Shown: positions 5,901-39,310 of the stretch, piece by piece
How positions within the stretch are numbered: position 1 is the first letter of the stretch
How the letters are laid out: every line of letters starts with the position of its first letter
Origin: Methylomarinum sp.
GTDB lineage: Bacteria; Pseudomonadota; Gammaproteobacteria; Methylococcales; Methylomonadaceae
Length of the DNA stretch: 41,040 bases
Direction of reading: 5' to 3'
Assembly: GCA_030636915.1 (NCBI GenBank)
Contig: DAOVVZ010000001.1
Location: 1 to 41,040 of the forward strand
Notes under the pieces: generated by a model
What the model was told of the DNA's origin: nothing
Databases searched by the model: none
What the model saw: only the letters and a program-made list of their open reading frames with translations
Position numbers and translations under genes: made by a program

Positions 5901-6123
5901 GATTATTATATTACCCGCTGATGTGCTAGAGGATAAACGAGTGAAACTAATCAAGGCAACTAAGCCTCACAAGTGCAAGAAAGGCTGTAGCATATGGTCG
6001 GGAGACGAGTACTATCCTCAAAGACGCGATAAAGCTTTATGTTTAACGCATGGTAGCCCGAGTAATTTATTATTACGGTGGGCGTTTAATAAGGTAAAGG
6101 TGATGAATGATGAAACAAGCTAA
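5884..6123 (+). CDS. Hypothetical Cys/His-containing small protein
   Basis: 79-aa ORF within the packed operon. No family recognised. Confidence 0.5.
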   Translation: MNKMFRIIILPADVLEDKRVKLIKATKPHKCKKGCSIWSGDEYYPQRRDKALCLTHGSPSNLLLRWAFNKVKVMNDETS

Positions 6124-7656: not shown

Positions 7657-7657
7657 G

Positions 7658-8518
7658 TTATTTAATCTCCCATTCTGTACCATTATCAATCAATGTTAAT
7701 GTTTGTATGAAGTTTTGAAACACCCATGTAGTGTCGGTTATTTTCGTACTAGTTGTTACGCTAATATTTGAAACTGATGTTAATGTCATTATCGTACCAT
7801 CAAGCCATGTTATTTTAATTGGTGCTCCACCACTTGCAGCAGGTACAACATGTGAGGCTGTAGCAGTGCTTGTATATGATTTACCAGCAACTAAGTTTGT
7901 AGCCGTTGCGATATCAGTTGGCAGTTGGTTAATTGCAGGAAGCCAATTAACACCTGTGTCAGCTGATGGATCGTTACCTGCTGTAGCCGTTAAGGCTTTC
8001 CATAAGTTTCCGCCAGTGGTTTGAACAACGTCTGCAATCGAATATGTTATCTTGTTATTCCACACACCTCTAAGCTTGAATTCTTCCCAAAAAGAATTGT
8101 CTCCTGCATCTTCTATTGGGTTATTTCCAAGATTGTTTTCAGTAAGCGAACGGTAATAAAGACCATTATCTGGTGAAACAACAAATGCTGGTATCCCATA
8201 AAGTATTGTCGAATTCCAATCACTAAAAGCAGATCTTGATCCTGATTGACCACCAACATTGTCAAGTAAGTTTATCTGAACATTATCTTTTGTTCTTAGC
8301 TCGACACTGTAAACGCCATCACCAAATACATCAAAAGGCAAGCGACCCTCACCATTTAAAGTGACAGGGTTTGGGTTTTCATCATTCAAACCTGCATCTG
8401 AGTATGTAATCTTCTTTGTTGAATAGTCGGTGTTCTCGTAGAACGTAACAACACCTGAAGCTAATGGATCACCATTATCATCGAATAGTTGCTCAAAAAT
8501 TGGGAATATTCTTGCCAT
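7658..8518 (-). CDS. Tail fibre protein
   Basis: ATG at 8518 with AAGGAG 7 nt upstream; the track start at 8524 is a TTG. The N-terminus FDDNGDPLASGVVTFYENTDYSTKKITYSD...NPNPVTLNGEGR is the common phage fibre/tailspike N-terminal motif (F.D.nG.PL.gG...fY..gT....tY.d....NP..ld..G). Confidence 0.7.
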   Translation of the reverse strand: MARIFPIFEQLFDDNGDPLASGVVTFYENTDYSTKKITYSDAGLNDENPNPVTLNGEGRLPFDVFGDGVYSVELRTKDNVQINLLDNVGGQSGSRSAFSDWNSTILYGIPAFVVSPDNGLYYRSLTENNLGNNPIEDAGDNSFWEEFKLRGVWNNKITYSIADVVQTTGGNLWKALTATAGNDPSADTGVNWLPAINQLPTDIATATNLVAGKSYTSTATASHVVPAASGGAPIKITWLDGTIMTLTSVSNISVTTSTKITDTTWVFQNFIQTLTLIDNGTEWEIK

Positions 8519-10203: not shown

Positions 10204-11420
10204 ATTTTCACCCATTGCCCGTTAGTGAATTTCATCTTAACACCACCCGAGCCTGTAGCAGTCACACCTTCAGTGTACTTTGATGGAGTGGTGGTTACTT
10301 CTTCAGGCTTAGCTTCTTCAAACTGTGCCATAATAGTTTTAATTTCATCAATGACGAATTGATCACCCTCAACCTCTGCCGCTTTTAAAGCTCTACGCAT
10401 TGAACGGTCAGCTATCTTCATTGTCTCTTTAAGTAATCTAATATTGCCTTCAGTTGACTTGCCAAAACCTGCTTCAATATCTGTTAAACGCTTTCCTTCC
10501 CCTTCAGTGAATGCTGAACCGAAGATTGGCTTTAATTGAGCTAATACAGCTTTACCCATGTTCGCAGAAAGTTGTGCTTCGTCTGCTGATTCTATACCAA
10601 ATAACTGTTTAGCTTTTAATGCTGCTTGGTCAAACCCACCAGTTTTAACTGTTTTTAATAGCTCAACTGAATCTCTTAGAATTCCATATGAGTCGGCAGC
10701 ATCAACACCAGAATCAATATACCCCTGCCTACGTTGAACGTTTGATTTATCAGAAACTCCAGCGGTTTTTATATCCTGCTTTTCTTGTGCAGTAGCGCCA
10801 AATTTAGCGGTTAACCTTCTGAAGTTTTCAAGCTTTTTAGTTGCGCCTTCTAATAAATCAGTATCACCTGAAGCTCTTGCTTTTTCAACTGTATCCTCTA
10901 GTGATGACATTGTTTCAAAGTTCTTTTCTGGATCGCTTAAATTCCTTTTCTTACCGCCGCCACCAATAGGTCGGCCTGTAAGATTAGACAGTGCAATCAT
11001 GTTTTGCTGAATATACTCGCTACCTGTTTTGCTATATGCAGCTTCTAGGCTTTTTATAATAATAGGGTTGTCTTTATACTGTTCGATAAGTTGAGGTATT
11101 AACTTTTTACCATCTTCTTCATCGTAAGTATTAAGCATTACTGCAATCTGAGTTAGTTCAGCTTTAGTATTTGCATTCTTCATACTTTCAACTTGCAATT
11201 GTTTCTGCTCTTGAATAATTGGATTTATAGCTTCTTGCTGCGTTGCTTGAGATCTTAAATTCTGGCCTTGTAATTGTGCATTCTGAATTTTTAAAGGATT
11301 CATTTTCTCATTGAAGGCGCGCTGTTCTTGCAAAGTTTGTGCATTCTGAAAAGCACCACCAAGGCGCAATCCAGATTGCAAAGCTTGATTTGATTGCTGT
11401 TGAAAATTTGGAATAGGCAT
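10200..11420 (-). CDS. Internal virion / ejection protein (Gln-rich N-terminus, coiled-coil)
   Basis: 406 aa. The N-terminal 90 aa are Gln/Asn-rich. Lies in the ejection-protein block. Confidence 0.5.
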   Translation of the reverse strand: MPIPNFQQQSNQALQSGLRLGGAFQNAQTLQEQRAFNEKMNPLKIQNAQLQGQNLRSQATQQEAINPIIQEQKQLQVESMKNANTKAELTQIAVMLNTYDEEDGKKLIPQLIEQYKDNPIIIKSLEAAYSKTGSEYIQQNMIALSNLTGRPIGGGGKKRNLSDPEKNFETMSSLEDTVEKARASGDTDLLEGATKKLENFRRLTAKFGATAQEKQDIKTAGVSDKSNVQRRQGYIDSGVDAADSYGILRDSVELLKTVKTGGFDQAALKAKQLFGIESADEAQLSANMGKAVLAQLKPIFGSAFTEGEGKRLTDIEAGFGKSTEGNIRLLKETMKIADRSMRRALKAAEVEGDQFVIDEIKTIMAQFEEAKPEEVTTTPSKYTEGVTATGSGGVKMKFTNGQWVKI

Positions 11421-14434: not shown

Positions 14435-14664
14435 CCAGTTGTTAAGCTTTCAATGGTGGTCTTTATATATAAATCATTTGTGTCAGTATCAATATAAAGC
14501 GATTTAAACCGACCATTCTCAATACCCTCAGGACTTCCTTCACCATCAAGTATTTCAAGATTAGTTAATGACTCAAGCAGTGTAAAAAATACAGTGGTAG
14601 GCTTACCAGCTTTATCCACTATTGCCGTTCCGTATGTTTGATTGTTTATCTGTTTATTAGCCAT
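14419..14664 (-). CDS. Small virion-module protein with a GxPEG...YxD...LYxK...GW motif
   Basis: 81 aa. DGEGSPEGIENGRFKSLYIDTDTNDLYIKTTIESLTTGW is a motif common at phage fibre and needle tips. Confidence 0.5.
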   Translation of the reverse strand: MANKQINNQTYGTAIVDKAGKPTTVFFTLLESLTNLEILDGEGSPEGIENGRFKSLYIDTDTNDLYIKTTIESLTTGWVLK

Positions 14665-16123
14665 CTACGTCAAGCACCATTTTCATAATTACCCATCGAA
14701 CATCAGCAGTACATGTAAACTTGAAGATTCTATATCTTTCAGTCATACCTAGCTGACTCCATTTTAATTTTTTATCATACTCACCTTGCGCACCTGCCGC
14801 CCTTGGCCGTGGTGAAGTGTATGTTCTACCGTTGTCTGAATACTGCATAAATAATTCAGCTTCATCAGTATTTATTAGTGATTGCCCTGAATCAATAACC
14901 GCTTCAATAGAATTAAAAAATAATGGTTCAGAATTATTTTCAAGTGTCTGTAATGAAAAAACTCTTCCTATGTAATTGCCATAGTCATTATTAATATCAT
15001 TATCAATTTCGCCAATTATCCCGCTTTCAGAGTCACTAACAAGTAAAGATTCATATGCAGTTACTAATGAATTAACACGCCACCTATCTTTTCCCTGTAA
15101 TCCTGAAGATAGTCTTGAGTGCCATACTTTAGAGCCTGATAATTCACTAGCCTTTGCATCATAAACAAGCGTCCCCTTATCACCTGAAAAACCTACGAAT
15201 ACAGCGCCACGGTATGAATAAGACCAAACAAAAGCAGTATTAGCACTATCTGAGTCTTGCTGTAGTAAGTAATCAATTGACGTTGTTGAAATAGGGGTAA
15301 CACCTGAGCCTGTGAACATGTAAACCTTTGGTGTTTCATCTACACCTTGACCGATAAAAACAAATGAACTATTAAATTCAGTAACAGTAAAAGGTGAGGA
15401 AATTCCTTTAGGTATTACAAAACCCTTGATCACTTGGAAAGCAAAGCCTGAACCCGTACCTGCTGAAGTTTGATAAACCTCTGTCGTTTCTGAACCTAAA
15501 ACAAATAACTGACTCTTGTGAACATGTAACGAACGGATTTTATCAGGGTCAGATTCAGCGCTAGTAAAATCTAAAGCGCCATAAACTAAACCGTTGTTAA
15601 CATTTGAATGAAAGAATTCTTTACTATCACGATTAATAACAAAGTAACTATCAATAAATACACCGATAACAGGTGCCGCTTTTTCAGTATCAATAAATGT
15701 TGATGAAGTAATAGGAACAAGACCACCTGCAACTGTGTAGATGTAACCGATTCTTGTATAAGGAACTATGATAAGTAATTGAGTTCCGTTGTCCGCTGTT
15801 GATACTCTTGCGTTATCTTCATCAGGATTAGCTTCGATAGTACCTAAAGGTGTTGCTGTTACCTTGTCGCTCTCCATCCTGTAAAGAGTAGTGCCGTTGA
15901 TAAAGTATGGTATTCCTGACATTACATGGGCACCACGACCAATTTCAGAAACGCCTGTATTAGTTAATTCCACCAATCCCGGCACTGGGAAAAGTTGAGC
16001 ATCAGAAATTGCACCTTGAGTTTCAGGGATGTTTACATAAAATCCCTGAATCAATTCAGAGGCAACAGGGGTTGCTTCAGATAAATATAATCCTTTACCT
16101 AATGATAGTGGTGAAGTTGCCAT
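14657..16123 (-). CDS. P22 gp10-like tail hub / packaged-DNA stabilisation protein
   Basis: 488 aa (P22 gp10 is 472 aa). I recall several collinear similarities. These are GRGAHVMSGIPYFINGTTLYRMESDKV vs SRGVEYN..AVYRVCGGKLYKGESEV; SLHVHKSQLFVLGSETTEVYQTSAGTG vs IGTWRDFIVCFGSSTIEYFSLTGATT; and the C-terminal KLKWSQLGMTERYRIFKF vs VLWKRVGRIRRLIGFKL. Confidence 0.6.
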   Translation of the reverse strand: MATSPLSLGKGLYLSEATPVASELIQGFYVNIPETQGAISDAQLFPVPGLVELTNTGVSEIGRGAHVMSGIPYFINGTTLYRMESDKVTATPLGTIEANPDEDNARVSTADNGTQLLIIVPYTRIGYIYTVAGGLVPITSSTFIDTEKAAPVIGVFIDSYFVINRDSKEFFHSNVNNGLVYGALDFTSAESDPDKIRSLHVHKSQLFVLGSETTEVYQTSAGTGSGFAFQVIKGFVIPKGISSPFTVTEFNSSFVFIGQGVDETPKVYMFTGSGVTPISTTSIDYLLQQDSDSANTAFVWSYSYRGAVFVGFSGDKGTLVYDAKASELSGSKVWHSRLSSGLQGKDRWRVNSLVTAYESLLVSDSESGIIGEIDNDINNDYGNYIGRVFSLQTLENNSEPLFFNSIEAVIDSGQSLINTDEAELFMQYSDNGRTYTSPRPRAAGAQGEYDKKLKWSQLGMTERYRIFKFTCTADVRWVIMKMVLDVDG

Positions 16124-21610: not shown

Positions 21611-23770
21611 TTAATTAACAACCTTTTCTTTTCTTCTATCATTACGGTCTTCATCATCGTTATCCATGTTAATTAACAATTCGATAGCTTTGATTTTCTT
21701 ATCGTGTTGATTCTTTTCATCTTCGCTTTCTGCTTTTTCTCTAGCAAGAATTGCCTGTTCGTGCATTAGTTCAAGTTCACCTTTTACTTTTGCATCTTTA
21801 CGTGTTGACTCTTTCTGAAGTTCAACAATCTTAGCAAGCGTCTCTTTCATCTTAACTTGCATCTCTTGAATCTTAGCTTCAGTTTCTTTTGCTTTGCGCT
21901 GTAAGTCCATGTTGCCCTGCTCAACTTGAGCTTTCAATAGTTCAGTTTGTAACTGCTCCATCTCTTGCTGCTGCTTCTGCATCTGCATCATTTCATCTTT
22001 CTGTTGCTGCTCTGCATCTGTCATCTGTTCAGGGAATAATTGATCGATATTAGTTGAACCTATCGCCTCATAATATGCTTTAACAACTGGAACAGGATTA
22101 CCGCCAGCCTGCATTAATAAATCAATACGATTTATCTGCGCTTCTGCTAATTGAATCCGTTGCATTTGGTTGCTGAATTGAGCATTTGCAGTTAGTGCAA
22201 TTTGAATATCATTAAAGTAGTCAACCTTCCAGTCTTCTTGACCTGTTATTGATTGATAAATTACCGGGTCAGTAAACTTCTGATTCAGGTCAAAGATAAT
22301 TTGAAACTCTTTAGACATACCATCGACAACGTTCATTAATAAACTTGAAGTAGGAATTGCCCCCTCTTGCAATACACCCAGAACTGAAGCTGCTGGAACG
22401 TTAGGACTTAATGCTTGATCTAAATTAAACTTGGAGCTCATTTCTTTTACGTCACCCTTAAGTTCAGTAGTAAGCGCATGTAATACTTGTGATGGCTCTT
22501 TGAATGGCATTGTCATGATTGAGGTTTGCAAAGATTTAGCAGAAATATTTGTTTGTTTAAATGAACCCGCTTTTGTTCTGAATGCCCCTGAAGATTTGCG
22601 ATCACGATGCTCTTTAGATAACCAACCACCTTGTAAGTTTGCCAGTTCTCCGGCATTCATCAATGAGTTAGTTGTTAGGTTAATACCTTTAACCGTAGCG
22701 CCTAGCATTTGCAAATAACCGATAGATAAGAATGCACCATCAGGAGATTCAACGAATCCATAGTAAGTAATTATTTGTGTTGGAATGATACGAGCTAAAC
22801 GAGAGTTTTTGATCACCTCATCAGTTTTTGTTTCTTTCCTTACCTCATTGAATGAAGCAACACTTGTTTCAGGTTCTTCTTTTGCTTTGGCATCAAGCAA
22901 TTCTTTTAGATTGTAAGTATTGCCATTGTAAACAACGAAAATAGTATCAACATCATAACGAGCAACAACACGAACCACCTTTTCAGTGTTCTTATGAACG
23001 GTCACAAGTAAAGGTTCAGCATAGCCATCACAATCTAAATCAAACTCGCAATACTGTTCAAGGAATTCAAAATCTTCATCTTCCATTGTTTCATCAGCAT
23101 CATCAGGAATGATTTCTTCATCCTTTGACCATAGCCCGGCTTGTTGAAGTTCCCATATATCATTGGCACGATATGTTTTTATTTCAGTGAAGCAACAATC
23201 ATCAATATCTTCACATTCATTATTCAATGAAAAGTTAGGGTATTTAATAATAGAAGATTGATTTCTTCCTTCAGTAGAATCAAAGAATGTTTTCTTGAAT
23301 ACAGCACCCTGAGCAGGTAACAAATATAAAAGCTTCTTCTGCTTTTCACGCCATGATTTCATTTCACTGTTGATCTGCCAATTCATATGGTCAGTGATAC
23401 GTTCACTTGATTGTTTCTTACTGTTATCTTCATCAACACCAACAACAGAAGTTGCAACTAAATCTTTAGCCTTCATTATCTCAGTCTTGGCCCTATCCCC
23501 AAAAGTTCTGATTGCTTCAGTGATCAAAGTGCTTTTAAAGTTTGCAGCACCTTCCCACGGGTAATCATTACCTTTAGTTTCAAACTCTGCAATCTTCATA
23601 CCTTCGTCAATTAGTTTTGACCAATCAGACATCGATGCTTGATTCTTTTCGTGTCGTTGACAAACTAAATGACCTAATTTTAAAAGTTTCTCTTTGCTTT
23701 TGTCTTTTTTGATAGCCCTATCAACAAGGTTAGCTTCATCAATTGCATCAATGTATTTTTGAATAGTCAT
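21611..23770 (-). CDS. Portal protein (P22-like, with long C-terminal coiled-coil barrel)
   Basis: 719 aa from ATG 23770, which forms a TAATG overlap with the terminase stop (P22 portal is 725 aa). It lies immediately after TerL. The C-terminal ~130 aa are Q/E/K-rich coiled coil, like the P22 portal barrel. Confidence 0.8.
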   Translation of the reverse strand: MTIQKYIDAIDEANLVDRAIKKDKSKEKLLKLGHLVCQRHEKNQASMSDWSKLIDEGMKIAEFETKGNDYPWEGAANFKSTLITEAIRTFGDRAKTEIMKAKDLVATSVVGVDEDNSKKQSSERITDHMNWQINSEMKSWREKQKKLLYLLPAQGAVFKKTFFDSTEGRNQSSIIKYPNFSLNNECEDIDDCCFTEIKTYRANDIWELQQAGLWSKDEEIIPDDADETMEDEDFEFLEQYCEFDLDCDGYAEPLLVTVHKNTEKVVRVVARYDVDTIFVVYNGNTYNLKELLDAKAKEEPETSVASFNEVRKETKTDEVIKNSRLARIIPTQIITYYGFVESPDGAFLSIGYLQMLGATVKGINLTTNSLMNAGELANLQGGWLSKEHRDRKSSGAFRTKAGSFKQTNISAKSLQTSIMTMPFKEPSQVLHALTTELKGDVKEMSSKFNLDQALSPNVPAASVLGVLQEGAIPTSSLLMNVVDGMSKEFQIIFDLNQKFTDPVIYQSITGQEDWKVDYFNDIQIALTANAQFSNQMQRIQLAEAQINRIDLLMQAGGNPVPVVKAYYEAIGSTNIDQLFPEQMTDAEQQQKDEMMQMQKQQQEMEQLQTELLKAQVEQGNMDLQRKAKETEAKIQEMQVKMKETLAKIVELQKESTRKDAKVKGELELMHEQAILAREKAESEDEKNQHDKKIKAIELLINMDNDDEDRNDRRKEKVVN

Positions 23771-25191
23771 TACCAATATCCTGTGTTGTTATCTTCTTCA
23801 ACAGGCCCATCATAAGGTTCTGTTTCTGCGTGTCTTAGTGACATTATGCCATATCTAACAGCATCAAGAAAATCATCGCGTGTTTTTACTACTTTACCAT
23901 CTTTACGATGATATAAACGAAACTCTTCAAAGAACATTTCAAGCTGTGAAAATACTTTGAACTTGCCTAGAACCATCATGTTTAGCATCATAGAAAGCCC
24001 CATTTCAACAGAGTTACCACCATCCTCAAAGGTCGCTCTATCTTCAAGCATGTTTACATCTTCTTCAGCATATAAATCACGGATAGTTTCTTTAGTATTT
24101 TTATCATGCTTAAGTGCATCATGGGGCCATGCAACAGGCACCCATTTGTGAAGCTTGTTAATTAGTACCGCCTCTTCTGCGATAGTCTTCTTGGATGCTT
24201 TCCAGCCATTGTATAAATAAACTGTTTCATTATCTCTATCGAATGCTAAGAACGCACAAGCCGATGGATGGTCATATGTACCTAAATCAAGCGCTTTAAT
24301 TCTAGGCCAATGACTTGGGATATCAAATGGTGTAACTCTGATATGGTCTTCACTAATAGGATATATTCTACCCTCACCTAATATCGGTATACCTTTACTT
24401 CGTGCTTCTCGTTCATGCTCAGGATAACTATTAACAATCTGCTCTTTCTCTGCCATCGTATAATGTTCAACGTCCATAATCGTCATCATGGTTAAGTGTT
24501 GATACTTGCTTGGCTCTGAATAGAACTCATTAACCACTGATGTCATACCTTTAAGTGGCGTAAATGTCATAAAGGAGAATTGACCGTTCTGTCCCTTGTT
24601 TGTACGTGTTAAACATTCGGTATATATATCTTGGTCTGGCTCCTCGTCATGCCAAACCCAATCAATGGTTTCACCCTGCAGCTTAGCTCTGCCTTTTTCT
24701 CTCGACTTGAAGAATATTAATGATGTGCCACCGTCAAAATGCTTTACTTTAACGTGATCTAGTAAATCCTTAACGCCATTTGATTTAACTAATCCAACCA
24801 ATTTATCAGTAGGTATTGTACCCGTTCCAATATCTTCCTCTATCTGAACACGACCACACAATAGTTTTTGAACAGTATCACGTATTAACTCACCTGACTC
24901 ACCCGTTACCCAGCCAACGTTCTTTTGTGTGAATCTTGCACCAACCCACCAATCAGGATATAAGCCAGTAGAATGATATGCTGCTTCTTGTGCGCCTGAA
25001 TATGTTTTACCTAACTGATTACCCGCACCAAAACAACGTTGTGAGAATGTTAATCCAGCAGCATGGAATTCTTTTTGTTTCTTATATGGCTCATAGAAGA
25101 ACATACCATTATTGCGCTTTGATTCTTTATATTCATTTATAGCCTGTGCTACTGCAATTGCTACATCTGCATTGTAAGATTCTTTAATCAT
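23770..25191 (-). CDS. terL: Terminase large subunit
   Basis: 473 aa. Walker A GAGNQLGKTYSG, Walker B-like IDWVWHDEEPD, RNaseH-like nuclease Asp region ALDLGTYDHPSA. ATGA overlap with TerS. Confidence 0.9.
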   Translation of the reverse strand: MIKESYNADVAIAVAQAINEYKESKRNNGMFFYEPYKKQKEFHAAGLTFSQRCFGAGNQLGKTYSGAQEAAYHSTGLYPDWWVGARFTQKNVGWVTGESGELIRDTVQKLLCGRVQIEEDIGTGTIPTDKLVGLVKSNGVKDLLDHVKVKHFDGGTSLIFFKSREKGRAKLQGETIDWVWHDEEPDQDIYTECLTRTNKGQNGQFSFMTFTPLKGMTSVVNEFYSEPSKYQHLTMMTIMDVEHYTMAEKEQIVNSYPEHEREARSKGIPILGEGRIYPISEDHIRVTPFDIPSHWPRIKALDLGTYDHPSACAFLAFDRDNETVYLYNGWKASKKTIAEEAVLINKLHKWVPVAWPHDALKHDKNTKETIRDLYAEEDVNMLEDRATFEDGGNSVEMGLSMMLNMMVLGKFKVFSQLEMFFEEFRLYHRKDGKVVKTRDDFLDAVRYGIMSLRHAETEPYDGPVEEDNNTGYW

Positions 25192-32630: not shown

Positions 32631-33071
32631 TTATCCCACCGTTCCAGTAACAGAGCCACCAGCATTAACAGCGTAATCAAAATCATTATTTATAACATCA
32701 ATTGCTGTATCTGTGCCGCCTGTTAAGTCTACAACTTTGTAACCGTCATCGTTTGTTGATGTGTCGTTATATATTAATGCAGTTCTTAAGTCGGTAGGAT
32801 TTGAAGCGTTCTTTAAAATAGTTGCTAAATCCGCATAATCAAGCGTTGATACAGTACCGCTTCTTACCCATGTAACACTACTTAACGTGGTTGCTGCTGA
32901 AAAGTTTCCGCCTGTTACCTGCGTAAAATCTGCAAGTTTTGGATTGACTGTATCAATATCAATAGTCGAGTAGACATCACTCAGCCATGCTATTTTAAAA
33001 ACATCTGTTGAATTGTTATATTCACCGTTACCTGCCCTAAGCGGATAATCATTAAATTGTTTAGAAGCCAT
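32631..33071 (-). CDS. Structural protein of the accessory fibre module (function unknown)
   Basis: 146-aa ORF. ATGA-type coupling to the upstream gene (33071). Confidence 0.55.
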   Translation of the reverse strand: MASKQFNDYPLRAGNGEYNNSTDVFKIAWLSDVYSTIDIDTVNPKLADFTQVTGGNFSAATTLSSVTWVRSGTVSTLDYADLATILKNASNPTDLRTALIYNDTSTNDDGYKVVDLTGGTDTAIDVINNDFDYAVNAGGSVTGTVG

Positions 33072-34399
33072 TATAAAACACCTTTGAAAGTTGAGCTTTT
33101 TATCGCACCGTTAAAACCACTTGTTTTATTCAGTATACCATTAATATTAATATTTTTTACTGTACCTGTAAATCCGCTAGTTTCTTTTATACTCCCTGAA
33201 AATAATATTTCTTTTAATACACCGCTAAAAGTTGAAGATATTATAACCTGAGAATTTATAATTGGGTTTAAAGCTGTATAGTTAGTGTTTACAGTATCTT
33301 CTGTAATTGTAATTGTGCCTGATAATATTATTACAGGATCAAGACTTGTGTAATTCGTGTTTACCGTTTCTTCGGTTATAACTATTGTATCAGTAGGCGT
33401 TAAAGTTATTGTTGGATTTAGTGCTGTATAGTTAGTGTTTACAGTATCTTCTGTAATTGTAATTGTTGCAGTTAAAGTTATCGTTGGATCTAAGCTTGTG
33501 TATGAAGTATTAACAGTATCTTCAGTTACCGTAATTGTGCCAGTTAAAGTTATAGTTGGATCAAGTACCGTGTAATTAGTGTTTACCGTATCTTCTGTTA
33601 CAGTTATTCCACTACTAACCTCTAAAAAGGCACCAATAAACCCTTGCGCGCCTGTTCCTGCTGTTGCTAGTGCTGAGGTTGATTTGGTTCTGTAATCTCC
33701 ACCTGCAAAATTAACTAACTCAGCACTAGTGAAGCCTGTTAATCCAGCATTGCCCGTTAAATCCTGAGTTGCATTTGTTATAAATACGCCTGTGTTACTG
33801 CTTATGTCATTGGTTGAGTGTCCGAAACAGAAGTTATTTTGAATTAGTACTGATGCATTTGATGCGAGTATACCCCATAAAGATGTACCTATAACCAAGC
33901 AATTCTCAACTTGATTTAAGAACGTGTTTGAGTTTGCAACAAATCCGAAATTACCCACACCATCAATAACGCAATTACGCATTATTTTATTTGTGTTTGT
34001 TGAGTTCTGGTTAGCCGCGTCACCTGTACCACTATGTGACAGAAAGCAGAATTCAACTAAAGTATCTTGCCCTGTTTGACTCATACCCTGATTAGACCCG
34101 GTGCCTATAGAGGCGATCCCAGATACAGAGCCATTAGGTGAGATAACATCAAAGCCAGCAGCTTGAGGGCATGTTAACTCGTTAGTTCCATTAAAATCCT
34201 CGCCAGACTTTGCGTAAACAGCGTAACCATGCGGGGTCGCACCTGAAAACATAGTGTTTGATACTGCTACAATTCCTGAACATACAGCCTCTATCAATGA
34301 TCCATAATCAGTGCCAGATTCGGCAGTCCACCACAATGCAAGCGTTGCATAGTCTTCACTACCGCCGTGACCCGCACCGACTAAACTAACTCTAGGCAT
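33071..34399 (-). CDS. Right-handed parallel beta-helix (pectate-lyase-like) protein, putative depolymerase/tailspike, with C-terminal tandem repeats
   Basis: 442 aa. It has repeated N-x-x-(I/V)-x-x-C/N rungs (IMRNCVIDGVGNFG, VENCLVIGTSLWG, IQNNFCFGHS). The canonical closing motif is present as LVNFAGGDYRTKSTSALATAG (compare FvD...gDyrL...SpaidaG). Then come five 24-26-aa repeats and six 9-10-aa F-x-G-x-(L/I/V)-K repeats. Confidence 0.65.
   Translation of the reverse strand: MPRVSLVGAGHGGSEDYATLALWWTAESGTDYGSLIEAVCSGIVAVSNTMFSGATPHGYAVYAKSGEDFNGTNELTCPQAAGFDVISPNGSVSGIASIGTGSNQGMSQTGQDTLVEFCFLSHSGTGDAANQNSTNTNKIMRNCVIDGVGNFGFVANSNTFLNQVENCLVIGTSLWGILASNASVLIQNNFCFGHSTNDISSNTGVFITNATQDLTGNAGLTGFTSAELVNFAGGDYRTKSTSALATAGTGAQGFIGAFLEVSSGITVTEDTVNTNYTVLDPTITLTGTITVTEDTVNTSYTSLDPTITLTATITITEDTVNTNYTALNPTITLTPTDTIVITEETVNTNYTSLDPVIILSGTITITEDTVNTNYTALNPIINSQVIISSTFSGVLKEILFSGSIKETSGFTGTVKNININGILNKTSGFNGAIKSSTFKGVL
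33257..33607 (-). repeat. In-frame tandem repeat, about 72-78 bp x 5 (ITVTEDTVNTNYT(A/S/V)L(D/N)PTITLTGT units)
   Basis: Five consecutive units are visible in the translation. At DNA level 33272-33316 and 33422-33466 are identical 45-mers 150 bp (two units) apart. Confidence 0.85.
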
Positions 34400-34697
34400 T
34401 CGTATCCTCTATGTATTGAAGTAAGGTTATTTCGTCTGCTGATATAATACCTTTCTCTAAAAGCTCAGTATAAAACGGGTTTCCTAGCGGCGGTATTGCG
34501 TATCTTTTTACACCGTTAACTAAGTCGTCATTTAACTCTTGAGATATATCAGCTATAACTCTTACATAGTCCTTATGTAACACTTTTACCTGTAAACCTT
34601 CGAATACATCAACGGGTAAAGACTCGATTACATCACCAACAACTTTACTTATGTTAGGCTTGTTAACTCTTAGTATTACGTGCTTAAAAACTGGCAT
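34392..34697 (-). CDS. Hypothetical protein (first gene of the accessory fibre module)
   Basis: 101-aa ORF overlapping the next gene by 8 nt. Confidence 0.55.
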   Translation of the reverse strand: MPVFKHVILRVNKPNISKVVGDVIESLPVDVFEGLQVKVLHKDYVRVIADISQELNDDLVNGVKRYAIPPLGNPFYTELLEKGIISADEITLLQYIEDTNA

Positions 34698-34724
34698 CCA
34701 GCCCCCTCTTATCCTTTATCTATT

Positions 34725-34937
34725 TTATTTAGTGAAGTGTTCTTTTTTAATATCTAACACATGCTTAACCATGAGAACAACGAGAATAGCCAAGCCTAGA
34801 ATGCTAGTAGTTATTTTTACAGCTGGCTCACCATAATCAAGCCACCAAACATTAGTATTCGATACCGCAGCAATAACGAGCGCTGTTTTGGGATGACTAG
34901 CTACTGCCTCTATCGCTTGTTTCGCTTCTTCTTTCAT
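34725..34937 (-). CDS. Small membrane protein, holin-like (2 hydrophobic segments)
   Basis: 70 aa. TALVIAAVSNTNVWW and ITTSILGLAILVVLMV segments, charged C-terminus KHVLDIKKEHFTK. ATGA overlap with the upstream gene. Confidence 0.4.
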   Translation of the reverse strand: MKEEAKQAIEAVASHPKTALVIAAVSNTNVWWLDYGEPAVKITTSILGLAILVVLMVKHVLDIKKEHFTK

Positions 34938-35404
34938 CGTTTTGTTTCTTTTGGCGCTTGTGTTTTATACATTGTAACACGCGTTTGAATGCCATTAAAG
35001 ATACGAGACTTAGCCATAATATGTTGTATATAACATCTAAGTCCATTTAGGAGCCTCGTAGGGAGTATTGTTATTGTCTGTAATGCAAGAATTAATAACG
35101 CTATATTATCATACAAATCAGGGTCGTAGTAGTTGTACCAAAGGAAGAACCCTAAGACGTTACACAAAACTAAGCTATAACTACATATAGCGGCATGCGT
35201 GTTTCTAGGCTGTAAGATAATTCCTACAATTAAATTCATAAATGCGGCGTATGAGTAGTAAAGGATATCTGGAGCTTTAACGATAAATGATGCATAAAAT
35301 AAATAAGCGATCACTAAAACAAAAGCGTCAATTGATGACGCCTTGTCTTTACTAAATAAAAGCAGACATATGATTGAAAATAATATCCACTGTACGGTGT
35401 TCAT
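34934..35404 (-). CDS. Polytopic membrane protein (4-5 TM)
   Basis: 156 aa with multiple hydrophobic stretches (WILFSIICLLLF, FVLVIAYLFYASFIV, AAFMNLIVGIIL, YSLVLCNVLGFFLW, IALLILALQTITIL). Confidence 0.55.
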   Translation of the reverse strand: MNTVQWILFSIICLLLFSKDKASSIDAFVLVIAYLFYASFIVKAPDILYYSYAAFMNLIVGIILQPRNTHAAICSYSLVLCNVLGFFLWYNYYDPDLYDNIALLILALQTITILPTRLLNGLRCYIQHIMAKSRIFNGIQTRVTMYKTQAPKETKR

Positions 35405-35529
35405 TATTTATTAGCCGCTCTACGTCTACGCGCTGCTGCCGCTTTTTTCCTTGCTGCTTCTGCTGCCTTTTGTTCATCTGACACAATTGGTTGTGGTGGC
35501 TTGCGCCTTCTTCCGTTTCCTGAAGTCAT
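35404..35529 (-). CDS. 41-aa Arg/Lys/Ala-rich small protein
   Basis: Hand-read ORF MTSGNGRRRKPPQPIVSDEQKAAEAARKKAAAARRRRAANK. AAGGG RBS upstream; the stop overlaps the next ATG by 1 nt. Confidence 0.35.
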   Translation of the reverse strand: MTSGNGRRRKPPQPIVSDEQKAAEAARKKAAAARRRRAANK

Positions 35530-35561
35530 AATTTACCCTTTAGTTAGTTTAGTTAATTATA

Positions 35562-35951
35562 TCACACTATCTCTATCAAGAATCTATCGGGCAATATGTC
35601 CAATAAATTACGTAATGTGTTTTTACTGTTCGTTACGTCTGGAATAGTATCGCTATCTAAAAACTTGATTGAGTCACCGACCGCAACACAGCCTTTAATT
35701 TGCCTTGTGTAGTTTGCGGAATGTATTTGTATATGAGTTCTATCCATCACGTTAATAATAGCTATACAGTTGCCGTTAGCTCTACTTGTGTACTTCTCGC
35801 CTTGATAAGCTCCTGCCGCCGGTATACAGCTAATATTAGTTTTATTATCTAACCATGGTAACTCTAATGTAAAACATTGAAAGTCACCAAAAGTTAAGCG
35901 TCCTACCGTACAATCATCAAAATATTTTCTATCTATTTTTAAAGTGTCCAT
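35562..35951 (-). CDS. DUF5675-family protein (conserved His/Cys pair; candidate peptidoglycan-active enzyme)
   Basis: 129 aa. TLELPWLDNKTNISCIPAGAYQGE and HIQIHSANYTRQIKGCVAVG match the family hallmarks I recall (ELPW.nN....SCIP.G.Y ... I.iH..N.....kGCI). Confidence 0.75.
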   Translation of the reverse strand: MDTLKIDRKYFDDCTVGRLTFGDFQCFTLELPWLDNKTNISCIPAAGAYQGEKYTSRANGNCIAIINVMDRTHIQIHSANYTRQIKGCVAVGDSIKFLDSDTIPDVTNSKNTLRNLLDILPDRFLIEIV

Positions 35952-36070
35952 ATTGAATATCCTATGCTAATTAATACGCCTATTGATATTACCAAATTTA
36001 CGACTACCCACCATTTAACAAATGAACTGCATACAGATACACTATGCTTGTTTTGATTGTGAGTAGTCAT
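35939..36070 (-). CDS. 43-aa single-TM protein
   Basis: Hand-read ORF MTTHNQNKHSVSVCSSFVKWWVVVNLVISIGVLISIGYSIWTL. AAAGGA RBS upstream. It overlaps the DUF5675 start by 13 nt. Confidence 0.35.
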   Translation of the reverse strand: MTTHNQNKHSVSVCSSFVKWWVVVNLVISIGVLISIGYSIWTL

Positions 36071-36084
36071 GATTTATCCTTTAG

Positions 36085-36399
36085 TTAACGTTGACCTTTA
36101 AAGCCGCCTGATTGTTGTCCTTGTTGAGAAAAGCCACCGCTTTGATGCCCTTGCTGTTGACCTTGTTGGCTGTTGTTTTCCTCGTAAATACCACACATTA
36201 CATTATCACGCATTTGACCGCCTTTTTTAAACTCTAATGCGTTCTGCTTTGCCAGTACACCAGCTAGGCTTACAGATGGGTCTAATAACAAAAACTCACC
36301 GTTGTCATTATTTAAAATCACACCTATTTGAACATACTCACCTTTAGTATCACTGTCTTTTTGATACTCGCCTACTTTTGCACTTAACCGTTTAGTCAT
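36085..36399 (-). CDS. Small protein with a Gly/Gln-rich C-terminal tail (possible OB-fold/ssDNA-binding partner of ERF; uncertain)
   Basis: 104 aa. A beta-rich core (KGEYVQIGVILNNDNGEFLLLDP) is followed by SQQGQQQGHQSGGFSQQGQQSGGFKGQR. The position downstream of ERF is typical for SSB genes, but the canonical acidic SSB tip is absent. Confidence 0.25.
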   Translation of the reverse strand: MTKRLSAKVGEYQKDSDTKGEYVQIGVILNNDNGEFLLLDPSVSLAGVLAKQNALEFKKGGQMRDNVMCGIYEENNSQQGQQQGHQSGGFSQQGQQSGGFKGQR

Positions 36400-36423
36400 T
36401 TTCTTTGCTCCTTATTGTTGAAT

Positions 36424-37104
36424 TTACATGTTTTTAGCTTGTTCTATTAACTCGTTAGCCTTTGCTATCAAGGCTTTCTTTTTCTCTTCTTGTTCGCTAT
36501 CAACACGAACATCGATACCGCTTATTTCTAAAAACTTATCGGCGTTAAAGTTTGGTATATTAAAAATCTTTTTGCGGTCTTCTTCGGATGCTTTACTGTA
36601 AGACTCTTTAAACGCTTCTTGGTAGCCTTTCCTTTTAAGATATCCTTCTGTGTTTCCGTATTCTGGATTTTCTTCTTTTTCTTTATCTGTCATTTCTGAC
36701 ATAGGAACCCATACAGTTAAATGAAAATAAATAAAATTAGGTTTTGAGCAGTTATTCCAATCTTCTTTGCTTGTCATTACATCAAAAATATTAACTTGAT
36801 CAGGTGTTGTTGTATTGAAGTAGCCAGTGTTCCAGTTGCCAGTGTTCCAGTTGCCAGTGTTCCAGTTGCCAGTGTTCCAGTTGCCAGTGTTCCAGTTGCC
36901 ATTGTTCAGGTTGCCAGTGTTTTGGTTGCCAGTGTTCCAGTTGCCAGTGTTCCAGTTGCCATTGTTTTGGTGGCCAGTGTTTTGGTCGCCAGCGTTACGG
37001 TTGCCAGTGTTTTTGTCGCCAGCGTTACTGTAGCCAGCGTTACGGTAGCCAGCGTTCCAGTCGCCAGTGTTTTGGTCGCCAGTGTTTTGTTTTTTAACTT
37101 TCAT
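36424..37104 (-). CDS. Pentapeptide-repeat protein (18-19 x-N-(T/A/N)-G-x units) with a ~120-aa globular C-terminal domain
   Basis: 226 aa, QNTGD QNTGD WNAGY RNAGY ... WNTGN x5. In the register (G/A)(N/D)(W/Q/R/L)(N)(T/A) it fits the A(D/N)LXX pentapeptide consensus. The C-terminus is ...FIYFHLTVWVPMSEMTDKEKEENPEYGNTEGYLKRKGYQEAF...NIPNFNADKFLEISGIDV. Confidence 0.8.
   Translation of the reverse strand: MKVKKQNTGDQNTGDWNAGYRNAGYSNAGDKNTGNRNAGDQNTGHQNNGNWNTGNWNTGNQNTGNLNNGNWNTGNWNTGNWNTGNWNTGNWNTGYFNTTTPDQVNIFDVMTSKEDWNNCSKPNFIYFHLTVWVPMSEMTDKEKEENPEYGNTEGYLKRKGYQEAFKESYSKASEEDRKKIFNIPNFNADKFLEISGIDVRVDSEQEEKKKALIAKANELIEQAKNM
36823..37092. repeat. 18 contiguous 15-bp tandem units (gccagtgttccagtt consensus), the first five identical
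   Basis: Counted unit by unit. 36823-36897 is five perfect copies and the later units diverge at 1-5 positions. In frame within CDS 36424..37104. Confidence 0.95.
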
Positions 37105-37128
37105 CTTTATTTCCTCTCTTATTAATAG

Positions 37129-37707
37129 TTAAATTGATTTAATTAAATCTCTGTACTTGTTTGAAACTTTAAACTTTTGAGCTATTTGATTTATAACTTG
37201 CTCAGGTGGTGTACCTTCTTTAATTGCTTGTGTCACACCTTCACTATCTGCTTGCCATGCTGCATCGTCATACCATGGCTTATCATCATCTTTCTTTTGA
37301 TTTGGTTTTTTATCATTACCTTGACTAGCTGCATTACCATCATCGTCTTCACTAGGAATTCCAGCGACAGCCTGTAAACTATATCGCTTGCAATATGTGA
37401 TAGCTGAGCCAGCCCCTTGCGCATCCTGCTTAGTTAACTGGACAGTAAAGCTACTACTTAACCATTCACCGCTAACGTGCATTAAAATCGTTTCTACGCC
37501 TATCCGCCCATTCTCTTCAATAGGAAACTGAACGTAACTTAAGCCGTTATTAAAAAATGGTTCTTTTACCACTTGGATTACAGAGCCTAAGTCAGCATAC
37601 GTACTCTTAAAGAATGGATTTTCAGCGCCTTTACTAGCCCCTCCCATTTCGTGTTGAGCTTTATTCATAGCAATAGCTATATTTTTAATTGATTCTGACT
37701 TATTCAC
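37129..37707 (-). CDS. erf: ERF-family single-strand annealing protein
   Basis: 192 aa. NPFFKSTYADLGSVIQVVKEPFFNNGLSYVQ and GSAITYCKRYSLQAVAGIPSEDDDG are hallmark ERF (P22 Erf family) motifs. GTG start with AAGGAG 8 nt upstream. Confidence 0.8.
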   Translation of the reverse strand: MNKSESIKNIAIAMNKAQHEMGGASKGAENPFFKSTYADLGSVIQVVKEPFFNNGLSYVQFPIEENGRIGVETILMHVSGEWLSSSFTVQLTKQDAQGAGSAITYCKRYSLQAVAGIPSEDDDGNAASQGNDKKPNQKKDDDKPWYDDAAWQADSEGVTQAIKEGTPPEQVINQIAQKFKVSNKYRDLIKSI

Positions 37708-37838
37708 TAGAATATCTCCTTTTCTTCATCTTTCTTTTTTAAAAATATGATTGCTTGCTGCTCAGGACTTGTTAAAGCATCACCATAAAAATAATATTGC
37801 TTACCTTTAATTGTTACTGCAACTGTTAACTCATCCAC
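37707..37838 (-). CDS. 43-aa small hypothetical protein
   Basis: Hand-read ORF (GTG start) VDELTVAVTIKGKQYYFYGDALTSPEQQAIIFLKKKDEEKEIF. It overlaps both neighbours (GTGGATGA and TAGTG junctions). Confidence 0.3.
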   Translation of the reverse strand: MDELTVAVTIKGKQYYFYGDALTSPEQQAIIFLKKKDEEKEIF

Positions 37839-38154
37839 GTTTACGCCCCTCATGTGCTTTAGTTGTAGTGTAAACATCTGTCGCTGTATTCGTGCTTACA
37901 GACTTATCTAATCGTTTTGCGCAATTGATCATCATTTCTTTAAGTTGCTTAGTGCAGTTTGTAACTATTAATAACTCACCGATAGCGTCTTTTTCTAAGA
38001 GATTTATATTACTCATGAAACCCTGAAGCCTAAAAAACTCTTTTTTGCAATTAGCTATTACTTGGTTACATTCTTCATCACTCGCTAGCATTATAAGTAT
38101 AGCGGGTATAGCCTTATATCCTGTGCTTAGACTCATATTAGTCTGTGTTTTCAT
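37831..38154 (-). CDS. Hypothetical early protein
   Basis: 107-aa ORF. ATGA overlap with the upstream small ORF. Confidence 0.6.
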   Translation of the reverse strand: MKTQTNMSLSTGYKAIPAILIMLASDEECNQVIANCKKEFFRLQGFMSNINLLEKDAIGELLIVTNCTKQLKEMMINCAKRLDKSVSTNTATDVYTTTKAHEGRKRG

Positions 38155-38324
38155 TTCGTATCACTCCAAAGTAAGAACCCTTCAGCTATCAACATAACAA
38201 TATTATTCTCTATTCCATGACGACCATCTAACTGAATTAATTTAGATGTACTTTTCTTTTTAACTATAATTGTTTCATCCATTAAAGGATCGATTACATC
38301 TACACTTAACCATTCAATACTCAT
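38151..38324 (-). CDS. 57-aa small early protein (first gene of the leftward transcript)
   Basis: Hand-read ORF MSIEWLSVDVIDPLMDETIIVKKKSTSKLIQLDGRHGIENNIVMLIAEGFLLWSDTK. It lies about 30 nt downstream of the leftward promoter. The RBS is weak. Confidence 0.4.
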   Translation of the reverse strand: MSIEWLSVDVIDPLMDETIIVKKKSTSKLIQLDGRHGIENNIVMLIAEGFLLWSDTK

Positions 38325-38355
38325 TTTATTAATCCATTTCGTTCCGATGTGATTA

Positions 38356-38384
38356 ATACTAGCGTACTACTTTTAATCGTGCAA
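38356..38384 (-). promoter_or_regulatory. Leftward sigma70-like promoter of the long minus-strand transcription unit
   Basis: Minus strand: TTGCAC (rc 38379-38384), 17-nt spacer, TAGTAT (rc 38356-38361). Confidence 0.5.
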
Positions 38385-38390
38385 GCGATT
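38375..38390. promoter_or_regulatory. Palindromic candidate operator AATCG-n6-CGATT
   Basis: 38375-38379 is the reverse complement of 38386-38390. The palindrome covers the -35 of the leftward promoter. Confidence 0.35.
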
Positions 38391-38419
38391 CATCAAATTA
38401 ATTTCAATCTTTCCATTAT

Positions 38420-38448
38420 TTGACAAAGATGGCACAAGCTGTTAGATT
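38420..38448 (+). promoter_or_regulatory. Rightward sigma70-like promoter
   Basis: TTGACA (38420-38425), 17-nt spacer, TAGATT (38443-38448). About 30 nt upstream of the HTH gene, which has an AGGAA RBS. Confidence 0.55.
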
Positions 38449-38477
38449 TAACACATACAAACAACTTAGGAATAAAT

Positions 38478-38678
38478 ATGGATTTAAAGACTATAGTAAG
38501 AACAGCAGCAGTAAAGAAAGACATAAACGGCGTCATGGATATGGCTAAGGCTTGCGGATTGAGCTATGAGAGAACATCTCGCGTTTGGTGTGGCAGTAAA
38601 GAGGCTAAGTTGAAAGATGTTGAGACTGTGCTCACTACGCTAGATGTTGAAATTAAATTTATTAAGAGGGCTATCTAA
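38478..38678 (+). CDS. Cro-like small HTH regulator
   Basis: 66 aa. MDMAKACGLSYERTSRVWCGSK is a typical HTH segment. First gene after the rightward promoter in a divergent-promoter region. Confidence 0.6.
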   Translation: MDLKTIVRTAAVKKDINGVMDMAKACGLSYERTSRVWCGSKEAKLKDVETVLTTLDVEIKFIKRAI

Positions 38679-39310
38679 TGAAAACAAAAGACTTAAACAA
38701 ACATATATTACTAGTCATAAAATGGTTAAACGATAAAAACTCTGTTACTCAAGATGAGTTAGTTGACAGCCGTAAAGATGCTTCTGCTGCTGCTGCTGCT
38801 TCTTATGCTGATGCTGTTGATGCTGCTGATGCTGCTGATGCTGCTGATGCTGATGCTGCTGATACTGCTGAAAAACGGGTAAATAAATATTTTGAGCGAA
38901 CAGGTAAAAACAAACAGGATTACATTGATGCTTTAAGCTTTGAATCTATACCCGTATATACAGCCGCTATGTGTGATGCAGGAGAGTTACCAAGTGTAGG
39001 TATGGAGTGTTTATTTAAAAAGCGCGGAGCATTAGAGTCAGGAACAGTAACCGCCATAACTAAGAGGTTTATTATTTTTACTGATTGGTTTGGTGATGAA
39101 CATGTAAGAAAAATAGATGAATTAACTATTGAACCACTTACTCCACCTATAAAGTTAATAGATGGTAAGGCTTATCAGTTTAAAGCTCATAAAAACAGAA
39201 AACCTGTAGATGGTTTTTATTCTGCCTATAAAGATGAGTTTGTTTATCTTCAAGGTACAGTAAGAAGCAATGATGCAATTAACATTAAACTACTTGAGGT
39301 GAAATCATAA
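38678..39310 (+). CDS. Hypothetical protein with an acidic Asp/Ala repeat tract
   Basis: 210 aa. Residues ~34-63 read DASAAAAASYADAVDAADAADAADADAADTAE. ATGA-type coupling to the HTH gene. Confidence 0.65.
   Translation: MKTKDLNKHILLVIKWLNDKNSVTQDELVDSRKDASAAAAASYADAVDAADAADAADADAADTAEKRVNKYFERTGKNKQDYIDALSFESIPVYTAAMCDAGELPSVGMECLFKKRGALESGTVTAITKRFIIFTDWFGDEHVRKIDELTIEPLTPPIKLIDGKAYQFKAHKNRKPVDGFYSAYKDEFVYLQGTVRSNDAINIKLLEVKS
38778..38870 (+). repeat. GCT/GAT trinucleotide microsatellite-like tract, including (GATGCTGCT)x3
   Basis: Read directly: gatgcttctgctgctgctgctgcttcttatgctgatgctgttgatgctgctgatgctgctgatgctgctgatgctgatgctgctgatactgctg. In frame. Confidence 0.9.

Follow-up and report, generated by a model that had tools for sequence, protein, structure and literature searches.

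The 41,040-nucleotide window analysed here (positions 1–41,040 of contig DAOVVZ010000001.1 from Methylomarinum sp., the entire source contig) carries a phage gene in which a tandem array of 15 bp units encodes a run of pentapeptides, and the question raised by this locus is which kind of pentapeptide repeat is present and what a protein of this type might do. The initial annotation placed the repeat, in the register G-N-W-N-T, in the A(D/N)LXX consensus of Qnr-like proteins and proposed a DNA-mimic decoy aimed at gyrase, RecBCD or a restriction/defence nuclease. The present analysis identifies a different repeat type, XNXGX, which is conserved at the protein level, is resized rapidly at the DNA level and precedes a conserved C-terminal domain. 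The reading that is favoured, with a probability of roughly 0.4, is that the product (P0001) is a cytoplasmic, early-expressed phage accessory protein that would engage the host, with the C-terminal domain as its functional core and the array acting as a fast-evolving binding extension. The gene and its parts are as follows.

36424–37104, minus strand: complete coding sequence of 226 amino acids, P0001 (open reading frame list, Pfam, PHROG and 93 further homologues).
36817–37086, minus strand: in-frame 15 bp tandem array of 18 units N-(T/A/N)-G-x-x, residues 7–96 (Tandem Repeats Finder, unit table, Pfam).
36823–36900, minus strand: perfect tract of 78 bp, GGC and then five copies of AACTGGAACACTGGC, encoding NWNTG five times (sequence, unit table).
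36781–36831, minus strand: family-wide junction motif NTG(Y/F)FNTxTPxxxxxF(D/N), residues 92–108 (alignments A1, A2 and A3).
36508–36816, minus strand: conserved alpha/beta C-terminal domain (C-domain), residues 97–199 (AlphaFold2, Foldseek, PDB profile search, Pfam, family profile).
36430–36507, minus strand: C-terminal amphipathic helix, residues 200–225 (AlphaFold2 secondary structure, alignment A2 columns 120–168).

P0001 consists of a six-residue leader (MKVKKQ), 18 pentapeptide units, the junction, the C-domain and the terminal helix, so that the array occupies the 5′ end of the gene and is followed by a non-repetitive C-terminal part of 130 residues. Tandem Repeats Finder (TRF) delimits the array at 36819–37086, with a period of 15 bp, 17.9 copies, 84% matches and no indels (score 277); this is the highest-scoring array in the window, with a 72 bp repeat a close second (score 274). 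Asn and Gly are in place in 18 of the 18 units and the XNXGX register runs uninterrupted and without indels. The 18 contiguous units that had been placed at 36823–37092 are the same array, read in the x-x-N-x-G register (TRF, unit table), and the five identical WNTGN units that had been reported are present as five consecutive copies of AACTGGAACACTGGC with no mismatch. The perfect tract at 36823–36900 is the most recent expansion. The junction motif ends the array and starts the C-domain, and Gly94, Phe96, Asn97 and Phe107 within it are invariant or nearly so. The helix spanning residues 200–225 is a lineage-specific extension that is missing from many homologues or swapped for other tails. 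The reading frame is backed by more than 90 homologues, in which N-x-G is kept at the protein level with differing codons.

A search of P0001 against Pfam using hmmscan returned PF01469 (Pentapeptide_2, XNXGX) as the sole family, with 60.2 bits against a gathering cut-off of 26.4 (E = 1.8 × 10−16, three stretches), which bears out the description of P0001 as a tandem-repeat-encoded pentapeptide-repeat protein. No match to PF00805, PF13576 or PF13599 was returned at E ≤ 1. The composition of the unit, pooled over 2,034 units from 189 family members, is as follows.

Unit position 1: N 90%, S 10%.
Unit position 2: T 50%, S 37%, A 5%.
Unit position 3: G 100%.
Unit position 4: N 31%, D 30%, Y 15%, S 6%, H 6%.
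Unit position 5: W 24%, R 23%, Y 9%, F 9%, C 8%, G 6%, S 5%, H 3%.

Position 5, the Trp position for which the role of the core 'L' had been proposed, varies more than any other in the unit. In the register used in the initial annotation the conserved Asn, Thr/Ser and Gly fall at i+1, i+2 and i−2, that is, at the free X positions and i−2 of the A(D/N)LXX consensus (Bateman et al., 1998, as cited in PMC9663297). Because these residues sit on the positions that the consensus leaves free, conservation in the array is the reverse of the Qnr/MfpA pattern, and the proposed fit to A(D/N)LXX fails, Trp (24%) and Arg (23%) being the commonest residues at the 'L' site. The array carries a net charge of about −0.07 per unit (family mean), and that in the window a net charge of −1; the isoelectric point (pI) is 9.2 for residues 1–96 and 5.4 for the whole of P0001, the latter owing to the C-domain (pI 4.9).

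The two repeat types occur together in the Barba phages. Rheinheimera phage Barba30A (L001), for instance, encodes the PF01469-type protein gp041 (5557–6534) and a separate PF00805-type pentapeptide protein, gp043 (7243–7755), two genes apart, and both genes are in the early transcript class.

The structure was predicted with AlphaFold2 (AF2) in two runs, one with a 67-sequence family alignment (A1) and one with an 18-sequence alignment of long-array members with their repeats in register (A3). In both runs residues 1–91 were modelled at a predicted local distance difference test score (pLDDT) of 21–39 with no strands, no secondary structure and no beta-helix, and the C-terminal part was modelled at a pLDDT of 85–97 as a small alpha/beta domain that leads into a long terminal helix. 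A Foldseek search against the PDB, in which the structures of Qnr, MfpA and AlbG are presumably included, gave no match (best E = 5.6). Against the predicted viral structures of BFVD, Foldseek returned family members only, including the 'Pentapeptide' model of Barba28A (probability 1.00). In searches against PDB sequences the array gave nothing significant, only a designed pentapeptide protein at E = 1.2, and the C-domain profile likewise gave nothing significant (best E = 0.6). This last match links the helical part of the C-domain to a chain from a transcriptional regulator of the NtrC family and was put down to chance; if the matched chain is the NtrC DNA-binding domain, as it is taken to be here, the would-be recognition helix is non-helical in the AF2 model. 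The structure prediction and fold search proposed in the initial annotation have therefore given a confident C-terminal part, no predicted fold for the array and no match to Qnr or MfpA; on the point that a fold other than a beta-helix or solenoid would speak against the proposal, they point clearly in neither direction.

These results bear directly on the proposal that the array forms a right-handed quadrilateral beta-helix resembling those of Qnr, MfpA and AlbG (PF00805, Rfr fold), mimics B-DNA and acts as a decoy. The likeness consists of the five-residue periodicity and of Asn or Asp being common at one position (position i−1 in 61% of units in the register G-(N/D)-(W/R..)-N-(T/S)); PF01469 and PF00805 also belong to the same Pfam clan, and the gene lies in an early region beside recombination genes. 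The differences include the absence of a match to PF00805, PF13576 or PF13599, the inverted conservation, the lack of a conserved hydrophobic centre, with about 40% of residues at the proposed core being non-hydrophobic (R 23%, G 6%, S 5%, H 3%), and the neutral charge. In addition, no quadrilateral helix was predicted in either AF2 run, Foldseek found nothing in the PDB below E = 5, the number of units (0–25) is not restricted to multiples of four and the periodicity at lag 4 is weaker than that at lag 2. The acidic DNA-mimic anti-restriction proteins Ocr and ArdA provide no closer parallel, since the array is neutral to basic and has no sequence or fold match in the PDB. The DNA-mimic claim failed every test available in this analysis and is considered very improbable.

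A further comparison is provided by the mycobacterial PPE-MPTR proteins, which belong to the same repeat family by hidden Markov model (PF01469, 60.2 bits) and have the same XNXGX signature. P0001 differs from them in having no PPE domain (Pfam), in coming from a phage, in showing no evident secretion signal and in its strict N-(T/S)-G-x-x unit. The repeats of PPE-MPTR proteins are built on a looser pattern, NxGxGNxG, and ESX systems export these proteins. For the PF01469 repeats of PPE proteins, for which there is no solved structure, AF2 predicts a novel thin beta-solenoid with a 10-residue coil (PMC9663297). Four methods (AF2 and three others) agree on a solenoid for PF01469, and where repeats are perfect AF2 is reported to predict solenoids too readily (bioRxiv 10.1101/2024.10.30.621056). 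In contrast to the PPE-MPTR prediction, AF2 gave no solenoid for the P0001 array. A weak two-unit superperiod is present at both variable positions (lag 2, z = 3.5–3.6, exceeding lag 4), in agreement with the 10-residue coil predicted for PF01469.

The low pLDDT of the array could also indicate a disordered, low-complexity region in which aromatic and Arg 'stickers' within an Asn/Thr/Gly 'spacer' drive self-association or the formation of condensates around the C-domain. The lack of secondary structure in two runs, one of them with the repeats aligned in register, is consistent with this explanation, as are an Asn content of about 40%, the presence of Trp, Arg, Tyr or Phe at position 5 in 65% of units at a strict five-residue spacing and the wide variation in length that is tolerated. 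However, Asn, Thr/Ser and Gly are invariant, and the register is kept exactly, without indels, even between lineages that share only about 40% identity in the C-domain, which points to a regular backbone geometry, and the agreement of the four prediction methods on a solenoid for PF01469 also argues against disorder. Such a disordered region is considered unlikely.

The C-terminal part had been described as an unrelated domain, and retrieval with the C-domain, alignment and profile searches show that it is conserved in homologues. P0001 matches PHROG 14105 (E = 2.9 × 10−44 over residues 57–208), which is annotated as of unknown function. With the C-terminal 133 residues as the sole query, 93 other proteins were retrieved, and a family profile (A2) built from 30 diverse C-domains found at least 1,585 representatives of 50%-identity clusters at E ≤ 10−3, 1,046 of them at E ≤ 10−10. 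The C-domain is at or near the C-terminus in nearly all of the best 150 of these, the exceptions being a few long proteins (P0143, P0210 and P0214). It is characterized by the motifs KPxFIYFxLTxW, MTxxEK, GGYLK, YKEAF and LPNFDxxxFxEISGID, with Pro184, Asn185, Phe191, Ile194, Ser195, Gly196, Ile197 and Asp198, together with the four junction residues named above, being invariant or at least 90% conserved. No Pfam family was assigned to it in a scan of 30 members at E ≤ 1, in which no family was matched by more than two members.

Across the family the C-domain is preceded by 0–25 XNXGX units, and about 80% of members retain an array; in some lineages S-T-G-x-x units replace XNXGX. The array is sometimes preceded in turn by DUF7666, YopX or unnamed N-terminal domains, so that N-terminal modules (none, DUF7666, YopX or others) are swapped in front of a domain that is constantly C-terminal. 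These fusion partners are all uncharacterised and give no functional lead. Members without repeats occur on long contigs (P0081, P0082, P0089 and P0090), and the C-domain (∼105–130 residues) is therefore the core of the family. GenBank applies the label 'pentapeptide' to 115 records of Rheinheimera Barba phages and 'pentapeptide repeat-containing protein' to members in Clostridioides difficile phage-plasmids of ∼130 kb, and matches in genome collections come from metagenome-assembled genomes binned to Alphaproteobacteria, Thiotrichaceae, Clostridia and Treponema. P0001 is thus a new addition to a family that is already in databases, as PHROG 14105 and as PF01469-annotated 'pentapeptide' proteins. 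A megablast search of the 2.7 kb region against phage records gave no match, and a word-based protein search with the array alone found only six proteins, probably owing to its low complexity.

Barba gp041 and the other members of PHROG 14105, including WP_009894971 from a C. difficile phage-plasmid, have the same architecture as P0001, with an XNXGX array, an NTG(Y/F)FNT junction and a C-domain ending in LPNFDxxxFxEISGID. Barba gp041 additionally shares the 15 bp length polymorphism and the early, non-structural position. It differs in that its C-domain is only ∼31% identical, in its length of 320–330 residues with more sequence ahead of the C-domain and in being encoded by 80 kb myoviruses. 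Membership of PHROG 14105 yields no mechanism for P0001. Literature searches on DUF7666, on Pentapeptide_2 in phages, on phrog_14105 and on pentapeptide repeats in anti-defence found nothing relevant, and the gene goes unmentioned in the paper on the Barba genome.

The arrays show rapid turnover. Within one array the DNA identity between units is 0.81, compared with 0.60 between arrays of different loci. The dominant glycine codon is specific to the array (GGC in 26 arrays, GGA in 18, GGG in 18 and GGT in 14) and covers on average 87% of its glycines, and runs of identical consecutive units are found in 52 of 76 arrays. The array-specific Gly codons and the identity within arrays indicate that selection acts on the motif at the protein level, with homogenisation and resizing of the arrays taking place in the DNA. 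Proteins that are at least 90% identical share the same leader of 4–6 residues and, nearly all, the same C-terminal part of 130 residues, and differ in their numbers of units: 11, 12, 14, 16, 17 and 18 in one such cluster, 3 to 19 in a second, 4, 9, 11, 12, 13 and 18 in a third and 5, 7 and 16 in a fourth. Among Barba isolates the gp041 gene is 963, 978 or 993 bp long. The copy-number variants in multiples of 15 bp that the initial annotation had suggested looking for are thus present in relatives and, together with the perfect tracts and the homogenisation within arrays, lend good support to its proposal of recent expansion by slippage or recombination. Whole 15 bp units are gained and lost within very short spans of evolutionary time, by slippage during replication or by unequal recombination, together with homogenisation within each array. 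In the 80 IMG/VR loci (L021–L100), a contig end lies within 700 bp upstream of the C-domain, in or beside the array, in 21 cases, compared with six downstream (binomial p = 0.006). This excess suggests that the arrays break metagenome assemblies, and truncated gene calls are therefore common in the family.

Codon usage in the arrays is also distinctive. Asn, Asp, Tyr and His codons end in C in 76% of cases in arrays and in 34% of cases outside the array in the same genes. The bias towards NAC codons is seen in 66 of 76 genes (Wilcoxon p = 2 × 10−11), and the GC content at third codon positions is 0.60 in the array versus 0.34 in the rest. In the window gene, analysed together with 75 homologous arrays, there are 36 NAC to 2 NAT codons in the array and 10 to 16 elsewhere. 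The four residues fill 82–90% of unit positions 1 and 4 and make up ∼37% of array codons, and they are exactly the set read by queuosine-modified tRNAs. Translational selection, founder effects of array expansion or some other cause could each underlie the bias.

With turnover of this kind, the array might be a selfish or neutral variable-number tandem repeat (VNTR) in a dispensable N-terminal tail, with function residing in the C-domain only. The existence of repeat-less homologues, the range of 0–25 units and the homogenisation and perfect tracts, which show turnover at the DNA level to dominate, would all fit this explanation. It is nevertheless judged improbable, given that independent lineages keep N-(T/S)-G with different codons, that ∼80% of family members retain an array, that the NAC bias of the array sets it apart from the rest of the same gene and that the junction NTGYFNT belongs to the conserved domain boundary. 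P0001 has in common with the in-frame, contingency-like VNTR proteins of bacteria and phages the perfect or near-perfect in-frame units, the homogenisation within arrays and the copy-number polymorphism among near-identical genomes. It differs in being early and cytoplasmic, whereas surface or virion proteins make up most of the classical examples.

A set of 18 direct repeats that lies in an early region and includes a perfect tract of 78 bp could also act as DNA, as iterons, an origin or protein-binding sites in which the coding capacity is incidental, and lambdoid origins do lie inside genes. This reading is extremely improbable and was rejected, as the DNA identity of units is merely 60% between the arrays of related phages with the amino-acid motif unchanged, the copy number ranges from 0 to 25 and the array is always in the same reading frame and fused to the same protein domain.

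The immediate surroundings of the repeat gene are as follows.

37129–37707, minus strand: gene for an ERF-family single-strand annealing protein, directly upstream (Pfam PF04404, E = 2.4 × 10−26; PHROG 2324/155).
37112–37118, minus strand: Shine–Dalgarno-like GAGAGGA, 7 nucleotides upstream of the ATG of the repeat gene (read from the sequence).
36085–36399, minus strand: gene for a 104-residue protein with a Gly/Gln-rich tail, directly downstream (phrog_37570, annotated as of unknown function).

The repeat gene begins 24 nucleotides past the ERF stop codon and ends 24 nucleotides ahead of the open reading frame of the 104-residue protein. It is probably co-transcribed with the ERF gene, yet translated independently from its own GAGAGGA ribosome-binding site. 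A scan of 34300–38800 for promoters and terminators gave no excess over shuffled sequences. From a divergent region at ∼38.3–38.5 kb a minus-strand block runs through small open reading frames, the ERF gene, the repeat gene, the 104-residue protein gene, a DUF5675 gene and genes for membrane proteins, and then the terminase, head and connector genes.

Conserved gene neighbourhoods were sought by clustering all open reading frames at 92 loci, and no conserved neighbour emerged. The commonest neighbours are YopX (10 loci) and the terminase large subunit, single-stranded DNA-binding protein (SSB), cell-wall hydrolase-like and DNA methyltransferase genes (six loci each); ERF-like genes fall into two clusters of five and four loci, and YqaJ is found at five. 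When the neighbouring proteins of the window were compared with the first 20 related loci, ERF alone was matched, and only at L007/L008. At L007 the homologue lies upstream of a DUF7666 paralogue, ERF and YqaJ; at L003 it follows DUF2800 and Enc34 single-stranded DNA-binding genes; at L002 it stands beside T5orf172 and ASCH-like genes, with a DUF3850/ASCH gene close downstream; at L005 and L009 it directly precedes terminase or portal genes; and in Barba gp041 lies among small hypothetical genes. On the C. difficile plasmid pCd18_2 (L101, 4461–5453) the homologue is found among DUF3850/ASCH-like, RNA 2′-phosphotransferase, DUF1653, amidoligase and nucleotidyltransferase genes.

The initial annotation had placed the gene in an ERF recombination module within an early leftward operon. 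The adjacency to ERF and the leftward block stand; the link to ERF is local to the window phage and one other lineage and is not family-wide. This pattern also bears on the possibility that P0001 is a recombination accessory factor and functional part of an ERF module, with a Trp/Arg/Tyr-studded array that binds single-stranded DNA or tethers ERF or SSB. Such a role would fit the position of the gene in the window, with ERF on one side and on the other a protein whose tail is SSB-like, its position upstream of ERF and YqaJ at L007/L008 and beside the DUF2800 and Enc34 genes at L003, the presence of ERF-like, SSB and YqaJ genes within 5 kb at nine, six and five of the 92 loci, a minority, and the suitability of aromatic and Arg side chains for base stacking. 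It is quite unlikely, however, as no recombination gene is a conserved neighbour, the ERF match in the first 20 loci comes from a single lineage and at many loci the gene lies just before terminase or portal genes or amid unrelated accessory genes.

As regards the 104-residue protein itself, its tail (QQGQQQGHQSGGFSQQGQQSGGFKGQR) resembles an SSB linker, and it gave no match in Pfam, NCBIfam, PADLOC or the PDB. Judging from its sequence, it may be a novel small single-stranded DNA-binding protein of the ERF module. The DUF5675 neighbour gave nothing significant against PDB sequences.

Information on expression comes from published transcriptomes of a Barba phage, in which the gp041 transcript peaks at the first time point, with log counts per million of 15.0 and 15.7. 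The values for DNA polymerase (15.4) and primase (15.9) are comparable, and those for the neighbours of gp041 are well below (PMC9305737, Table S2). The window gene would likewise be expressed early, to judge from its place in a block that starts at the divergent region and holds ERF. The initial annotation had noted that homologues consistently found as virion components would count against an early role. The relatives are early, abundant and non-structural, and this objection therefore does not apply; they lie in early or accessory regions, and the virion-component reading was rejected.

Several other features of the window may be noted. The leftward block is nearly unbroken over 31 kb (7033–38324, minus strand), from the early region through the terminase, head and connector genes, and there are two rightward blocks, a short one at 38.4–39.7 kb and another at 1.3–6.8 kb. 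The structural genes in the leftward block include the following.

23770–25191, minus strand: terminase.
14657–16123, minus strand: head closure.
8614–10215, minus strand: major head protein.

The 72 bp tandem repeat (4.5 copies, TRF score 274) is located at 33272–33598 within an open reading frame at 33071–34399 on the minus strand and encodes units of ∼24 residues, 'ITVTEDTVNTNYTxLxPTITLTG'. The 442-residue product has no PHROG match and, from these units, looks like a fibre or spike-type repeat protein. A GCN-rich repeat of 6, 9 and 15 bp at 38779–38871 encodes an Ala/Asp low-complexity stretch (AAAAASYADAVDAADAADAADADAAD) in a 210-residue rightward early protein (38678–39310, plus strand) that has no family match.

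In the favoured reading, P0001 is an accessory protein that engages the host. The accessory character follows from the lack of a conserved neighbour over the 92 loci and from the fact that unrelated phages carry the gene in regions of early, replication, recombination or nin-like type. Within the array, Asn, Thr/Ser and Gly are under purifying selection, and positions 4 and 5 are hypervariable, with Trp, Arg, Tyr, Phe, Asp, Asn and His well represented. The conserved residues would build a regular, narrow scaffold, most likely a thin beta-solenoid with ∼10 residues per turn, as predicted for PF01469, or a form in which order comes only with binding or oligomerisation. An exposed multivalent binding surface would be provided by the two variable positions. 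The protein might thereby bind a macromolecule of the host at an early stage of infection and act in host takeover or counter-defence, and changes in array length and surface by slippage could serve as a route of adaptation in an arms race.

Several observations weigh against this reading. The early timing is that of the Barba homologue only, which is 31% identical in the C-domain by tblastn. The repeat-less members suggest that the array is dispensable in some phages. The regular scaffold is an unproven step, because AF2 gave the array no confident structure in spite of its tendency to over-predict solenoids, although this failure is best regarded as informative rather than decisive. The lag-2 signal could arise from duplicated 30 bp blocks instead of from a 10-residue coil. 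NCBIfam and PADLOC scans of P0001, a DUF7666 homologue and two neighbours gave no matches, and no paper was found that gives a partner, target or phenotype for any family member.

A more far-reaching reading, which must be regarded as doubtful, sees in the XNXGX array a multivalent recognition module that can evolve, in effect a contingency locus that phages would use in the cytoplasm. Slippage would retune its length and the two exposed positions of each unit, so that a host target involved in defence or takeover could be bound, sequestered or evaded, and the module would be coupled to an effector domain at the C-terminus with a fold unseen in the PDB. The NAC bias might, in addition, tie translation to the tRNA modification state of the host.

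The significance of the locus lies mainly in the family to which it belongs, which is large (at least 1,585 clusters at 50% identity) and is distributed among phages of Proteobacteria, Clostridia and spirochaetes. In at least one phage, the family member ranks among the early genes with the highest transcript levels. The core domain of the family has neither a Pfam model nor a structural relative in the PDB, and the array offers a natural example of in-frame repeats turning over very fast in a phage protein that is not structural. For annotation, the lesson is that the label 'pentapeptide repeat' on proteins of the P0001 type must not be taken to mean a Qnr-like DNA mimic. A cultivable homologue system exists in the Barba phages on Rheinheimera BAL341, so that the function of the family is directly testable.

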